Of a stretch of 59,703 nt of DNA, positions 10,424 through 15,590 are shown piece by piece (the stretch's first letter is position 1; every line of letters begins with the position of its first letter). Position numbers and translations under genes: made by a program. The notes below the pieces were generated by a model. The model did not search any database and was not told the origin of the DNA. It was given only the letters and a program-made list of their open reading frames with translations. The stretch is from an uncultured Rickettsiales bacterium. GTDB lineage: Bacteria > Pseudomonadota > Alphaproteobacteria > Rickettsiales > CAIJLX01. The stretch lies in contig CAYPXJ010000001.1 of assembly GCA_964414595.1 (NCBI GenBank), forward strand, positions 53,443 through 113,145. The letters run 5' to 3'.

Positions 10424-10455
10424 TCGCTACGAGTTCTCCGATTATATTATCAGGG

Positions 10456-10532
10456 TGGTCGGGGCGAGAGGATTCGAACCTCCGGCCTCGTGGTCCCGAA
10501 CCACGCGCGCTACCAGGCTGCGCTACGCCCCG
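10456..10532 (-). tRNA. tRNA-Pro (anticodon CGG), CCA encoded
   Basis: Minus-strand sequence: CGGGGCG TA GCGC AGCCTGGTA GCGC G CGTGG TTCGGGA CCACG AGGCC GGAGG TTCGAAT CCTCT CGCCCCG A CCA. It folds by hand as a 77-nt cloverleaf. Confidence 0.9.
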
Positions 10533-10703
10533 AATTCCTACCAGACCAAATCGCGCGCCTGGCATTATTTATTCGCACATACGCTTCCGCGTATCGTGCA
10601 GGGCTGCGCTACGCCCCGAATTCCTACCAGACCAAATCGCGCGCCTGGCATTATTTATTCGCACATACGCTTCCGCGTATCGTGCAGGGCTGCGCTACGC
10701 CCC
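10516..10703. repeat. Perfect tandem repeat, 86-bp unit x2 plus a 16-nt third copy. Each unit is the tRNA-Pro(CGG) 5' 17 nt plus a 69-nt upstream module.
   Basis: 10516-10601 and 10602-10687 are identical. 10688-10703 repeats only ggctgcgctacgcccc, which is tRNA positions 2-17 on the other strand. Confidence 0.9.
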
Positions 10704-10954
10704 TCGCTCACGCTTGCGTGAGAATACCTAAAACAAGCGCGTGTTTCATACAGAAACTACCCCCTAAATCCAAGTTATTTCTTTTTCAATTTGAGAGGGA
10801 GCAATCGAGAACGTAATTTTTAAAATTTTTCGTGCGATACAATATTTGGTAGTGGGATGCTTAAAAACCGCAGCAACTAGCCCATTTCAGCAGATTGTGG
10901 CTCCCAAATTGATAGTCCGTACTGTCAATTTGAGAGCCCCTCTCATAATGAGAT

Positions 10955-13129
10955 TTACGCATAAATATCCGGCTTAATCAGCAAATTGCCTCTTACGCGG
11001 CCGCGCGAGCCCTTCGGTGTCGCCGTTTCTTCGTAAATATGAATGAAACGGTGGTGATCGCGCCCGCCAATATAGTTGTAATTCGCATTGCTGCCGGTTG
11101 CGTCGCAATTACCCAAAGATGTCGGGAAATAATTGCTATCCAAATCGGCATCTGCACCCGTAACGTCATTTGCCCCCGCGCTGAAATCCACATCGACGTT
11201 TGCATCGTAAACACCGTAATCGGAGTTTACTTCCGCCGCATCTGCCGTTGCGAGTGCGTTGATGGAGTTTGTATTGGCTTTGCAGGCAATGCCGCGCAGA
11301 TTCATCACCGCAGCGGGTTCACCGCAGGCAAACGCGCTGGAGCTATTCAAGATCGTCAGGCCCAGATACGCAAATGTTTTGCCCGTTCCCGAGGTGATGT
11401 TATTAAAACGCACCGCTTCGTTTGCGCCGTCGATGAGGTTAGGGCCGTACGAAAGACTATTCACGTTCGTATTCGGAAATAGGCCGCGCCCTGTACCCGC
11501 CGAGATATGATTGCCTTCGATAACATGCACATTTCGGCTGGATAAAGTCGGCGCGAATACCGCAGCGAAGGAGGATTGCTGCGTGGTCGCGTTAAAGCGA
11601 TTAAACAAACATTGCCAATCGGGCGTCTCTCCCACAGAAGAGTTTTCGTTCGTGCCCCACACGCGCGTGCAGCCATAGTAGTTGGAGTTTTTCCAGCCCG
11701 TTATCTGCACCGCAGAGGCGCCGGCATCTGCTTTCACCCAATAACACCAGTTGGTCTCCGTGGTGCCGCCATTGGCAAAAATATTAATACCGCCGCCGGT
11801 AAGCTCAGAGAAATAACCGCCGATAATAGTGAGATCCAAATAATTATGGGTGGTGAAACATTGATCATTAAAGGCGGTGCCGGGACGTGTGCCCTGACAT
11901 TTAAGATAAACCGCATCGATATCTTTGGATGCGCTGTTACTGCTGCCGAAAGCCGACCAGCAATCACCTTTGGAATCTTTGGCAACGCACTTATGAAATA
12001 ACCAGGAGACATTCGTTTGCGAAAGCTGGGTTCCCATCAGCACAAGCCCTACGCCGCTGGCAGAGCTTGCCGAATCACGCCACACGATATTTTCCGCGCG
12101 CAGCATGCCCGCATCCCATCGCCAGGAATCGCTGGCCTGGCTGTAATCAAATGCAAAATTACGCATCCAGAAAGGTTGGGTCATGCCGCCTTGACCGGAA
12201 TGTGTCCAGCAACTGGCTGCGGTCCCCACTTTGATGGCGCTGTTCGGCCCGGAGCCTTCCAGAATAATGCCTTCCGGCCCTTTTCTGCCCGCGGCAATAT
12301 TCGCCGTCCAGTTGGAACTTTGAAACGCGGCGTTAGGCAACGTAATGGTCGAATCCGGCAACAATAATCTATCGCCCGCAACGGCGATGGCCGCCTTTGC
12401 CACAAAATCCGTGCCGTCGGAAATATTATAGGTGGTGCCTGTAACCGCAGGGAAGGCAATAGCATAAGTTTGCTTCACACCACCAATCTGCGTGCCTACC
12501 GGCGCTGTGATGCTGATCGCTGTACCATCGAGCGTTCCCAGCGCGATGTAACGATGCGCGCAGGTCACATTGATATCGTAGCCATCGACAATATACCAAC
12601 CAATCGGCGACCAGTTCACACCGTCCGGCGATTCTTTCACAAAGACATCTTTGCGGCTGCCGAATGTGCTGATTTTGAACTGGCGCGCATCGCTGGCCAG
12701 GCTTGCCGAAAAGACGATATGCGGCTGCGCGGGTTGCCAATCCTGAGGATGAATATCATCGGCATTAGCGGTGCCGCTGGCGCCGCTCGGCGCTGTAAAG
12801 TTGGCCGGCGTGCGCATACCGCACAGGGTCAGCGCAATCGCTTCGCTATCACTACCGATCGCGATAGTTTCACCCGGTGTTGCCGTAAGCATCAAGCGGT
12901 CGCACTGATAGACCCGGATTTTTTTCACCGCGGCGCTGCCGATTTTTACATAGAGAAAAAATGCGAGATCCCTCCGTACACGAAATCCGGTGTAAATACA
13001 CACAGCATTCGCGCCAGAAGGCACGATGAATTTTGTGGCGCTTGGCGTTTGCGTGATATCGGTTTGAATTGTGGAAAGCGTAAATACGCTGGTTTTTTGA
13101 CGTGAAAGTACATGCAAAAGATGGCCCAT
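10955..13129 (-). CDS. Hypothetical 724-aa protein, probably a right-handed parallel beta-helix (tailspike / polysaccharide-lyase-like fold). No family recognised.
   Basis: Long ORF with a strong RBS (AAGGAG 5 nt upstream of the ATG). Composition is G/S/T/N/A-rich with many Trp and Cys. Repetitive short beta-strand-like blocks occur (IILEGSGPNSAIKVG, NVHVIEGNHISAGTGRG, GGINIFANGG). No signal peptide is evident. Confidence 0.6.
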   Translation of the reverse strand: MGHLLHVLSRQKTSVFTLSTIQTDITQTPSATKFIVPSGANAVCIYTGFRVRRDLAFFLYVKIGSAAVKKIRVYQCDRLMLTATPGETIAIGSDSEAIALTLCGMRTPANFTAPSGASGTANADDIHPQDWQPAQPHIVFSASLASDARQFKISTFGSRKDVFVKESPDGVNWSPIGWYIVDGYDINVTCAHRYIALGTLDGTAISITAPVGTQIGGVKQTYAIAFPAVTGTTYNISDGTDFVAKAAIAVAGDRLLLPDSTITLPNAAFQSSNWTANIAAGRKGPEGIILEGSGPNSAIKVGTAASCWTHSGQGGMTQPFWMRNFAFDYSQASDSWRWDAGMLRAENIVWRDSASSASGVGLVLMGTQLSQTNVSWLFHKCVAKDSKGDCWSAFGSSNSASKDIDAVYLKCQGTRPGTAFNDQCFTTHNYLDLTIIGGYFSELTGGGINIFANGGTTETNWCYWVKADAGASAVQITGWKNSNYYGCTRVWGTNENSSVGETPDWQCLFNRFNATTQQSSFAAVFAPTLSSRNVHVIEGNHISAGTGRGLFPNTNVNSLSYGPNLIDGANEAVRFNNITSGTGKTFAYLGLTILNSSSAFACGEPAAVMNLRGIACKANTNSINALATADAAEVNSDYGVYDANVDVDFSAGANDVTGADADLDSNYFPTSLGNCDATGSNANYNYIGGRDHHRFIHIYEETATPKGSRGRVRGNLLIKPDIYA

Positions 13130-13185: not shown

Positions 13186-15039
13186 TTACTTTACAGGATG
13201 GATATACGCCTGCCACGCGCGGCGATACGCCGCTTCCAGATTGCGCGCAAATCGCGGCGCGTCGCATAAAGGTGAGGCAAGCACGCGCGGTCGTAACGTA
13301 CTGCGCAACTCACGCAGCGCCTCGCTGTTCGACGCATATTCCACGGCCTTGGCGATATATTCTTCGGCGGAATGCGCCACCCAATCCTGCAATGCGACGG
13401 CGCTGAGCAGCGACGCACCCAACCGACTGAGAAATGTATCACCTGCGAGCGCGAGCACCGGCACACCCATCCACAACGCTTCCACCGTCGTCGTGCCGCC
13501 GTTATATGGAAATGTATCCAAGATGATATCGACCTGATGATAGGTTTTGAAATATTCCTGCCGTTTGCTTACCCCCTCAAAAATCAACCGCGACTCGGGA
13601 ATATTCTGCTCCGCGAAGAGCGTGACGAATCGCGCACGCACGCCTGCGTCGGTCCATTGCTTGCCTTTGAAACAGAACTGCGCGTGAGGAATTTTTTGCA
13701 AAATCTCGGCATAGATCTTCACCATCGCCGGCGTAATTTTCGCGATATTATTAAAGCAGCCGAACGTAAACGGGCCCTCACCACGCGCAGGCGCGATAGC
13801 AATTTCCGGCGGCGTAAAACACAAAAAACTATCGGGCAGACGCAGCGGCGCTTCGGTATAAAATTTTTCTTGTTGCGGCGGAATCGTCAGGCCGTCGCAG
13901 ATAATATAATCCATCGCTTTCATTCCGAGCGTATCGAGATAACCAATCCAACTCGCCTGAATCGCCGCGGGTTTGCGCGCGAAAATACCGAGGCGATTGC
14001 CCTCCGTATGGCCGGATAAATCGATAAGAACATCGATCTGATCGTCGCGGATAATGTGTGCGGCGGCGTCATCGCTGACGTCAAAAATGTTGCGCCAATG
14101 ATCGCTCGATTGCTGCAAACGCTGCGTGATTTCCTGCACGATATTCTGGTTCGCGTAGCAGAAAATCTCCACCTGCTTTTTATCATGCGCGGCCAAAACC
14201 GACTCCATAAAATAACCGATAGGGTGGTTTTTAAAATCACCGGAAACATAACCGATGCGCAGGCGCCGCGCCGGATCGCGATCAAATGTCAATCCACCCA
14301 TCTGCACATTTTCCGGCGCGAAACGCGCAGCCCATTCCAACGCGTGCGCATGAAGAGTCGCAGGATCATTTTCCTGATAATGCAGCATCAGCAAAAAATT
14401 ACTGAACGCATTTCCATCATTCGGATTCAGGCGTTTTGCCTCGGCGCACGCAGCAAGCGCTTCGGCAATTCGCCCCTGCTCGCGTAGCGCATGGCTCAGA
14501 TTATAATGCGCCTGCGCATGCGTTGGCTCGAGCGCAATGGCTTTGCGATACGCCGCTTCCGCCTGCATAATTTGCGCGTCTTCCAAATACGCATTGCCGA
14601 GATTATTCCAAATTTCTGCATCCGGCCTCACCTGCGATGCGCGGAGGTAATGCGCAATCGCCTCGGAAAGCTTGCCCTGTTTTTTGCAGATATTGCCGAG
14701 ATTATAGAGCGCTTCCGGGTTCTGCGGCTGCAGATGAATACTATAGCGATACGCGCTTTCCGCTAAATCCGCCTTACCAACCGCCTCGAACACCAGGCCG
14801 AGATTGGAATAGATCGTGGCATTCTCGGGAGTCAGCGAAACGGCTTTTGAAATCAGCGGCAATGCTTCCTGAAAGCGGCCTAGCTGATACGCCACAATAC
14901 CCAAATGATGGAGCGCCTCGGGCTGTTCGGGCGCTGCGGCCAAAATTGACTGATAGATATTTGCCGCGTCTTGCAGCTTTCCCGCGCGCAGATAATTGTG
15001 ACCTTCGGCAAGCGCCGCAGATAGATTTTTAGCATTCAT
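13186..15039 (-). CDS. TPR-repeat protein fused to a GT41-family (OGT/SPINDLY-like) glycosyltransferase domain
   Basis: 617 aa. The N-terminal ~220 aa hold several 34-aa TPR units (AxxxYxxAL..P....A..NLG). The C-terminal part has GT41 signature blocks: GYVSGDFKNHPIGYF, DLSGHTEGNRLGIFARKPAAIQASWIGY and DTFPYNGGTTTVEALWMGVPVL. Confidence 0.85.
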   Translation of the reverse strand: MNAKNLSAALAEGHNYLRAGKLQDAANIYQSILAAAPEQPEALHHLGIVAYQLGRFQEALPLISKAVSLTPENATIYSNLGLVFEAVGKADLAESAYRYSIHLQPQNPEALYNLGNICKKQGKLSEAIAHYLRASQVRPDAEIWNNLGNAYLEDAQIMQAEAAYRKAIALEPTHAQAHYNLSHALREQGRIAEALAACAEAKRLNPNDGNAFSNFLLMLHYQENDPATLHAHALEWAARFAPENVQMGGLTFDRDPARRLRIGYVSGDFKNHPIGYFMESVLAAHDKKQVEIFCYANQNIVQEITQRLQQSSDHWRNIFDVSDDAAAHIIRDDQIDVLIDLSGHTEGNRLGIFARKPAAIQASWIGYLDTLGMKAMDYIICDGLTIPPQQEKFYTEAPLRLPDSFLCFTPPEIAIAPARGEGPFTFGCFNNIAKITPAMVKIYAEILQKIPHAQFCFKGKQWTDAGVRARFVTLFAEQNIPESRLIFEGVSKRQEYFKTYHQVDIILDTFPYNGGTTTVEALWMGVPVLALAGDTFLSRLGASLLSAVALQDWVAHSAEEYIAKAVEYASNSEALRELRSTLRPRVLASPLCDAPRFARNLEAAYRRAWQAYIHPVK

Positions 15040-15252: not shown

Positions 15253-15255
<3 letters not shown>
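15216..15255 (-). terminator. Perfect 40-bp palindrome abutting and overlapping the 3' CCA of tRNA-Pro(UGG); likely an intrinsic terminator or processing hairpin
   Basis: ccatctacttaagcagtgct|agcactgcttaagtagatgg is its own reverse complement. On the minus strand it is followed by TTTAGG. Confidence 0.6.
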
Positions 15256-15507
<252 letters not shown>

Positions 15508-15590
15508 AAAGAGAACTATAAAATGAAGCGGGCGATGCAATAGCAGGAAATTTCTTGCACCGCAACTTCTGCATTGTGTATGGTCGCCGA

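Follow-up and report, generated by a model that had tools for sequence, protein, structure and literature searches.

The window, a 59,703-nt stretch that lies within a single gap-free contig, carries an intact tRNA-Pro(CGG) gene on its minus strand, immediately preceded by short tandem units that each contain a copy of the gene's own 5' end. Tandem Repeats Finder (TRF) reported a repeat of period 86 at 10516–10703, with 2.2 copies, 100% matches, no indels and a score of 376, in agreement with the perfect 86-bp tandem repeat described in the first-pass annotation. Its further statement, that the units re-copy the first 17 nt of tRNA-Pro(CGG) followed by a 69-nt leader, is borne out by the sequence, ARAGORN and Rfam. 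Throughout, G000 denotes the source genome (1.8 Mb), C-numbers its scaffolds, and all other G and L labels other genomes and loci. The features of the array are as follows.

10456–10532, minus strand: tRNA-Pro(CGG), intact gene (ARAGORN; Rfam RF00005, 65.5 bits)
10516–10532, minus strand: first 17 nt of tRNA-Pro(CGG), the source of the repeated fragment (sequence)
10533–10618, minus strand: tRNA-proximal 86-nt unit, consisting of a fragment copy (10602–10618) and a 69-nt leader (10533–10601) (TRF, 100% identity)
10619–10704, minus strand: distal 86-nt unit, consisting of a fragment copy (10688–10703) and a leader (10619–10687) (TRF, sequence)

Read on the tRNA strand, the order is thus fragment, 69-nt leader, fragment, 69-nt leader and full tRNA, and the array abuts the gene without a spacer. 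The outermost fragment, which had been noted as a third copy of the tRNA start, spans 10688–10703 and matches 16 of the 17 bases, position 10704 being A in place of C1. Open reading frames overlapping the array had no Pfam match and the 86-bp period is not divisible by 3, so we read their peptides as artefacts of the repeat, as had been proposed. A perfect small hairpin (CTCACG-CAAG-CGTGAG; 10705–10722, minus strand) lies 4 nt upstream of the outermost fragment. Genes near the arrays of the window encode an Exo_endo_phos-family nuclease, a DNA_pol_A_exo1/HRDC-domain protein (RNase D-like), a 724-aa orphan and a GT41/TPR protein; an integrase, nuclease or transposase adjoining either array was not found. 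The 724-aa frame (10955–13129, minus strand) lies between the two tRNA-Pro genes of the window and has no Pfam or NCBIfam match, and its neighbour is the TPR/GT41 glycosyltransferase at 13186–15039.

The same layout precedes a second gene in the window, tRNA-Pro(UGG), where TRF reported a period of 89, 2.2 copies and 100% identity at 15313–15507.

15253–15329, minus strand: tRNA-Pro(UGG) (ARAGORN, Rfam)
15330–15418 and 15419–15507, minus strand: two perfect 89-nt units, homologous to the CGG units (TRF, sequence)
15515–15520, minus strand: TATAGT, a hexamer resembling a −10 box, 7 nt before the outermost UGG fragment (by-eye comparison)

A third gene, tRNA-Pro(GGG) on scaffold C3, is preceded by the same leader and fragment in an array interrupted by 100 N. 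A scan of all 39 tRNA genes of G000 found no further tRNA with this cassette. Across the genome the insert between fragment and tRNA measures 64–72 nt. Fragment copies match their own tRNA, with C6 at the CGG and GGG loci and A6 at the UGG locus, which points to concerted evolution of each array with its gene. A covariance model of the full leader (R1) matched only the tRNA-Pro loci in G000, apart from three matches to the HP1 hairpin described below; a match at C1:45306, inside a flagellin gene, was judged to be chance. Chance can be set aside as a source of the repeats. The assembly consists of scaffolded short reads with many 10-N joins, and unit counts are therefore given as lower bounds. 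At least two full units at each of the CGG and UGG loci must be real, because a 17-nt repeat alone cannot make a loop in a de Bruijn graph and the assembler has to meet a repeat longer than its word size; the true number may be higher. The tmRNA of this genome is of the two-piece type, which marks the organism as an alphaproteobacterium.

We then examined the structure of the unit. One CGG unit folds into three hairpins according to the minimum free energy (MFE) structure, the centroid and the pair probabilities, and the leader alone has a folding z-score of −3.5.

10600–10617 (distal unit, 10686–10703), minus strand: HP0, G2–C6 of the fragment copy paired with GCCCU at its 3' edge (MFE and centroid fold)
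10575–10599 (distal unit, 10661–10685), minus strand: HP1, GCAC-G-AUACGC-GGAA-GCGUAU-GUGC (folds; compensatory pairs)
10539–10564 (distal unit, 10625–10650), minus strand: HP2, UGCCAGGC paired with GGUCUGGUA (folds; antisense match)

HP0 has pair probabilities of 0.76–0.99, and its pairs are invariant across loci, hence beyond the reach of covariation. HP1 has a stem of 10 bp, interrupted by one bulge and capped by a GGAA loop of the GNRA type, and shows two compensatory double changes relative to the GGG locus. The ATACGC-GGAA-GCGTAT hairpin of the first-pass annotation falls within it and is well founded, with a pair probability above 0.98 for nine of ten pairs. An A/U-rich linker separates HP1 from HP2, whose 5' strand CCAGGC (10557–10562) is antisense to tRNA nt 15–20 and whose 3' strand CUGGUAG copies the D-loop; across loci it shows one compensatory pair and one wobble pair. 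When the three G000 loci are compared, pairing holds in 98% of cells, and there are three compensatory pairs in all.

The annotation had also proposed that the TACGC of HP1 could pair instead with GCGTA inside the tRNA fragment, giving two mutually exclusive folds, and had suggested searching homologous units for compensatory changes. This comparison, run across the three loci, favoured HP1 and HP2 and went against the alternative. The GCGUA:UACGC helix has a probability of 0.0 in the folding ensemble of the unit, and both of its variable positions break pairing in the homologous units (A·G at UGG, G·A at GGG) with no compensation. The idea of mutually exclusive folds therefore fails, the compensated structures being its rival HP1 and HP2. 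Related units of the type found at locus L026 replace C-G by U-A in three of seven sequences. Among standard-pair variants in the G000 loci and the L026-type units, G·U is present and A·C never occurs. Since G·U is tolerated on the tRNA strand only, the hairpins read as RNA in the orientation of the tRNA, and the array is in all likelihood transcribed as a 5' leader.

The sequence of the leader can be partly traced to the tRNA itself. In six L026-type units and in L055, 11–14 nt are perfectly antisense to part of tRNA nt 14–28, a length reached by 0–1 of 2000 shuffles; behind this piece comes a direct repeat of roughly nt 18–25, and together the two form HP2. The units of G000, L128, G247 and G094 have an antisense match of 6–8 nt (ACCAGGC or GCTACCAG), which 31–337 of 2000 shuffles reach. 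ACCAG is the sole leader motif kept across all subtypes. Judged by these matches, the cassette is put together from stretches of the 5' part of the tRNA itself, some in sense and some in antisense, a make-up that fits an origin by local rearrangement.

We next searched for signals that could drive expression of the array. A consensus scan found no sigma-70 promoter inside the arrays on the tRNA strand, and the units also lack the TATAAG/TATAG box that precedes other tRNA genes of G000. At the UGG locus, TATAGT upstream of the outermost fragment matches these −10 boxes by eye; the consensus scan did not call it, and no good −35 is present there. Elsewhere, L047 has TATAAT 11 nt before its outermost fragment, and G247 and G094 have CTTGC-type −35 boxes upstream. 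The spacing from box to fragment resembles that of ordinary tRNA promoters in cassette-free relatives, which lie about 11 nt upstream of the tRNA. Just upstream of the CGG array there is no recognisable promoter, which counts against the leader reading; this array may be co-transcribed with upstream genes. Taking the G·U bias and the upstream promoter-like boxes as indirect support, we read the array as a probable transcribed 5' leader.

The cassette is sporadic among relatives. Of 401 genomes of the order searched with a strict pattern, 4 have a fragment 45–75 nt upstream of tRNA-Pro. Two perfect 86-nt units are present in G094 and two perfect 88-nt units in G247, where an older unit of another type lies distal to the new ones; G046 has a single unit. 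The tRNA-Pro(GGG) gene of G094 also carries a G094-type cassette, its fragment decayed; judging from the three loci of G000 and the two of G094, cassette types are genome-specific yet common to paralogous tRNA-Pro loci. In G001, from the same family, and in other relatives the cassette is missing and a plain promoter lies about 11 nt upstream of the tRNA; a synteny comparison with G001 that sought an empty site aligned only the tRNA itself. The syntenic close relatives L026, L127 and L029 carry one, one and two units, respectively, and records with L026-type cassettes are labelled Rickettsiales or Alphaproteobacteria. A Holosporales-labelled match proved to be a true tandem of two tRNA-Pro genes, and extra 17-mer matches in G002 were unrelated sequence with no cassettes. 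With covariance model R1, no leader lacking the fragment was found in 150 related genomes. As a control, repetition of GTAGCTCAG at the same spacing was sought in 151 relatives and gave a single fragment-like case; these 151 genomes hold five tRNA-Pro loci with the layout, in three genomes. Because GTAGCTCAG-containing tRNAs are far more numerous, the layout is enriched at tRNA-Pro.

Beyond the order, partial 5' copies of tRNA-Pro occur 62–92 nt upstream of the gene in many phyla (one genome per species, true tandem tRNA genes removed before reading). Between 17 and 43 nt are copied, and roughly one locus in four has at least two units. A Bacteroidales long-read MAG (L019) has five units upstream of tRNA-Pro(CGG), of 87, 78, 79, 87 and 87 nt, with mosaic identities; at the same 8-kb locus, the 5' end of tRNA-Lys(CTT) is likewise repeated 89 nt upstream of that gene. 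In Microbacteriaceae (L022, L025 and L089, including isolates), the first 40 nt of tRNA-Pro(GGG) and a hairpin lie 79–91 nt upstream of the gene; the hairpins of L025 and L089 differ by compensatory changes between genera, and the filler of L022 differs. A specific pattern for the G000-type cassette had no hits in metagenomes, and a looser one returned mostly true tandem tRNA-Pro genes along with three real cassettes (L125, L127 and L128). Viral contigs contained no fragment-leader-fragment layout, and the only tRNA-Pro sequences that followed ACCAG there were ordinary genes.

Other partial tRNA copies are present in G000. The last 19–27 nt of tRNA-Arg(ACG), tRNA-Ser(CGA) and one tRNA-Met(CAT) are copied 137–188 nt downstream (C6:54800–55146, C7:54381–54700 and C16:12346–12640); the fillers share the motif GGTTCGACAAAA, and the modules look like classical 3'-side modules, either similar to the tRNA-linked repeats (TLRs) of E. 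coli or small and att-flanked. At tRNA-Arg(CCT) (C12:12290–12520), a displaced pseudo-copy of about 49 nt of the 5' part lies 148 nt upstream, with a different anticodon stem and an AT-rich filler between copy and gene. HP1-like hairpins occur at C31:17539–17590 (locus L139:1501–1552), C5:65926–65978 and C7:54330–54379. One of these is near-identical to the HP1 of the GGG leader, shares its A/U-rich tail and has the same orientation; it is situated between murJ and proA, the gene for glutamate-5-semialdehyde dehydrogenase. At tRNA-Val(GAC) and tRNA-Ser(CGA), copies in inverted orientation directly adjoin the 5' end of the gene.

We compared the arrays with systems already described. In known integrative elements, bounded by attL and attR, the duplicated part of the tRNA gene is nearly always the 3' one, and the enclosed DNA runs to kilobases and includes an integrase. 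The arrays share with them a direct repeat of a partial tRNA gene that flanks inserted DNA while a functional gene is kept; they differ in copying the 5' part, in an insert of only 64–72 nt in G000, in having no recombinase nearby and in their tandem units. As in REP/BIME families, HP1 is an imperfect palindrome with a small set of relatives between genes of G000, but it has only about four extra copies in the genome, the full cassette is found at tRNA-Pro genes alone, and the RAYT (Y1) transposase that accompanies such repeats (PF01797) was not found in G000. The 3' external transcribed spacer of glyW-cysT-leuZ, which sponges small RNAs (as cited in PMC8144298), is likewise a by-product of tRNA-precursor processing that may act as an RNA itself, but it is a single 3' segment with no tRNA copy.

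The closest described objects are the E. coli TLRs, of which there are 22 units at ten loci with 1–5 per locus; the last 18–19 bp of each unit repeat the 3' end of the neighbouring tRNA or rRNA, and for the majority no function is known (PMC8144298). They have been known since 1978, and the 178-bp repeats of tyrT/tyrV carry RttR, according to Egan and Landy (1978) as cited in PMC8144298. We confirmed the E. coli tyrTV (tyrV) array as 178 bp in 3.1 copies overlapping the tRNA 3' end. In both cases short tandem units adjoin a tRNA gene, presumably inside its transcription unit in our arrays; the unit carries a short copy of the tRNA's own end (18–19 bp in TLRs, 17 nt here); and units are few (1–5 per locus in TLRs, two full units at each of two loci here, as a lower bound). 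Unlike TLRs, the present units lie upstream, so that the unit start corresponds to the 5' end of the downstream gene instead of the unit end to the 3' end of the upstream gene; they are 100% identical, versus 95% in E. coli; and the layout is concentrated on tRNA-Pro. The arrays show no relationship to RtT RNA (RF00391), in sequence or by its Rfam model, since cmscan of 10440–10960 with E up to 10 returned only the tRNA and a chance microRNA, and no Rfam family beyond tRNA matched the array at gathering or permissive thresholds. Our literature searches found no published description of a 5' equivalent.

Several explanations of these arrays have to be weighed. That the duplication is an assembly artefact is extremely improbable: the genome was indeed scaffolded from short reads, the GGG array contains a 100-N gap, and the recurrence of the same 2.2-copy figure in several independent MAGs suggests that assemblers may collapse longer arrays, but no loop would be visible to an assembler without at least one full repeated unit, the two arrays of the window differ in unit sequence and share one gap-free contig, and the layout recurs in isolates and in long-read or complete assemblies (L019, L067 and Microbacteriaceae isolates). 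We regard it as very unlikely that each unit carries a promoter and that the array thereby raises tRNA-Pro expression. The A/T-rich linkers do contain −10-like hexamers (AATAAT at CGG, TAAAAT at GGG and a perfect TATAAT in L127), and several non-alphaproteobacterial loci have plausible promoters between fragment and tRNA. Against such tandem promoters, no −35 occurs at the proper spacing, the consensus scan was empty on the tRNA strand, the box typical of G000 tRNA promoters is missing from the units, those of G247 and G094 have no A/T-rich linker at all, and the GNRA loops, tandem G·A and G·U of HP1, which lies upstream of the linker, indicate a function as RNA. A cis-regulatory RNA that couples tRNA-Pro maturation to the status of proline or tRNA-Pro is a somewhat less remote idea, and still a doubtful one. 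Here an anti-D motif (CUACCAG/ACCAGGC) would pair either with the D-loop mimic inside the cassette, forming HP2, or with the genuine tRNA D-arm, and HP1 would be a shared signal module used before proA too. The near-invariance of ACCAG across otherwise diverged cassettes speaks for such a switch, as do the L026-type antisense strand, which never varies while its HP2 partner does, and an antisense match that runs past the fragment boundary and would thus be specific for the real tRNA; the HP1-like hairpin and tail upstream of proA and the enrichment at tRNA-Pro over other tRNAs would also fit. When unit and tRNA were folded together thermodynamically, the upstream fragment was predicted to take the 3' acceptor strand and the leader to pair with the D-arm in 8 of 11 loci, but shuffled leaders behaved like real ones in this energy comparison, so that real leaders compete with the cloverleaf no better than shuffled ones. 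HP2 also has a probability near 1 in the isolated unit and would form before the tRNA is transcribed; the inverted HP1-like hairpins at tRNA-Val and tRNA-Ser mean that the link to proline may be coincidence; and conservation of the anti-D motif could reflect mere origin as an inverted tRNA copy.

Rather better placed, though we still consider it unlikely, is a selfish non-autonomous element or its scar, which would target the D-loop position of tRNA-Pro and restore the gene by its own copy of the 5' end. Such an element would be spread by a nuclease or recombinase supplied in trans and specific for the site, and new units would enter beside the tRNA. This would agree with the sharp fragment boundary, kept at nt 17–19 across families, with the sporadic occurrence in the order and absence from G001, and with the same genome-specific type at every tRNA-Pro paralogue in a genome. 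The arrangement of some arrays points the same way: in G247 the older unit, which is of a different type, lies farther from the tRNA than the two new ones, units of L047 decay with distance from the tRNA (69, 93 and 100% identity), and the outermost fragment has the position expected of the original tRNA start relative to the promoter. The other partial copies at Arg, Ser and Met genes of G000 may be counted in its favour as well. On the other side, neither window array is adjoined by an integrase, nuclease or transposase, G000 has no Y1/RAYT transposase, viral contigs contain no attP-like fragment and leader, the full leader model has no other match in G000 and none in 150 relatives, and the L019 array is mosaic instead of polar.

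The reading that we favour, and hold on balance to be likely, is that the array is a 5'-side analogue of the E. coli TLRs, amplified and homogenised by out-of-register recombination at its 17–19-nt repeats and removed from the transcript by RNase P. The unit would be a structured leader cassette that encodes no protein, opening with a copy of tRNA-Pro nt 1–17 and continuing in hairpins that derive partly from D-arm sequence. Transcription would start at an ordinary gene promoter upstream of the outermost fragment, the whole array would be carried as a long 5' leader, and RNase P would free the tRNA at its genuine 5' end. HP0 would hide each pseudo acceptor strand and so prevent competition with the real one; because the fragment takes the 3' acceptor strand in 8 of the 11 loci folded with their tRNA, this insulation would rest on the order of co-transcriptional folding. 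We infer these steps of transcription, processing and recombination from the arrangement of the sequence.

Identical direct repeats of 17–19 nt bound the cassette, one being the fragment copy and the other the start of the real tRNA. Whole units could be gained or lost between them through slippage during replication, or through recombination or repair out of register, and the same process would keep the units of an array uniform and matched to their own tRNA and could copy the cassette into other tRNA-Pro genes of the genome. RecA is inefficient at repeats of only 17–19 nt, and for this reason the spread among paralogues has the standing of a model. Slippage accounts for the amplification; it does not account for the first fragment-leader-tRNA state or for the preference for tRNA-Pro.

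A more speculative extension, to which we give a low probability, is that the cassette propagates itself as a hitch-hiker of tRNA-Pro genes. Because it opens with tRNA nt 1 to 17–19, a broken or stalled replication site in the D-loop region could be repaired out of register, with a sister copy or a paralogous tRNA-Pro locus as template, and this repair would add units beside the tRNA and seed the genes of other proline isoacceptors. If true, the cassette would represent a class of mobile DNA that can do without a dedicated enzyme and always leaves its target active, and the similar layouts in other phyla would be independent members of this class, a 5' counterpart of TLRs.

Returning to the arrays as 5'-side analogues of TLRs, their practical side is that they break short-read assemblies, as at the GGG locus, and yield spurious open reading frames. 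They also raise the questions of whether such leaders slow or gate tRNA maturation, whether excised units persist as stable small RNAs, and whether unit number varies within populations in the manner of a contingency locus. The mirror-image 5' form makes this kind of repeat approachable through its conserved hairpins, its sense and antisense tRNA pieces, its focus on tRNA-Pro and its recurrence in many phyla, and these four properties suggest a general, overlooked route to structured, amplifiable flanks of tRNA genes.
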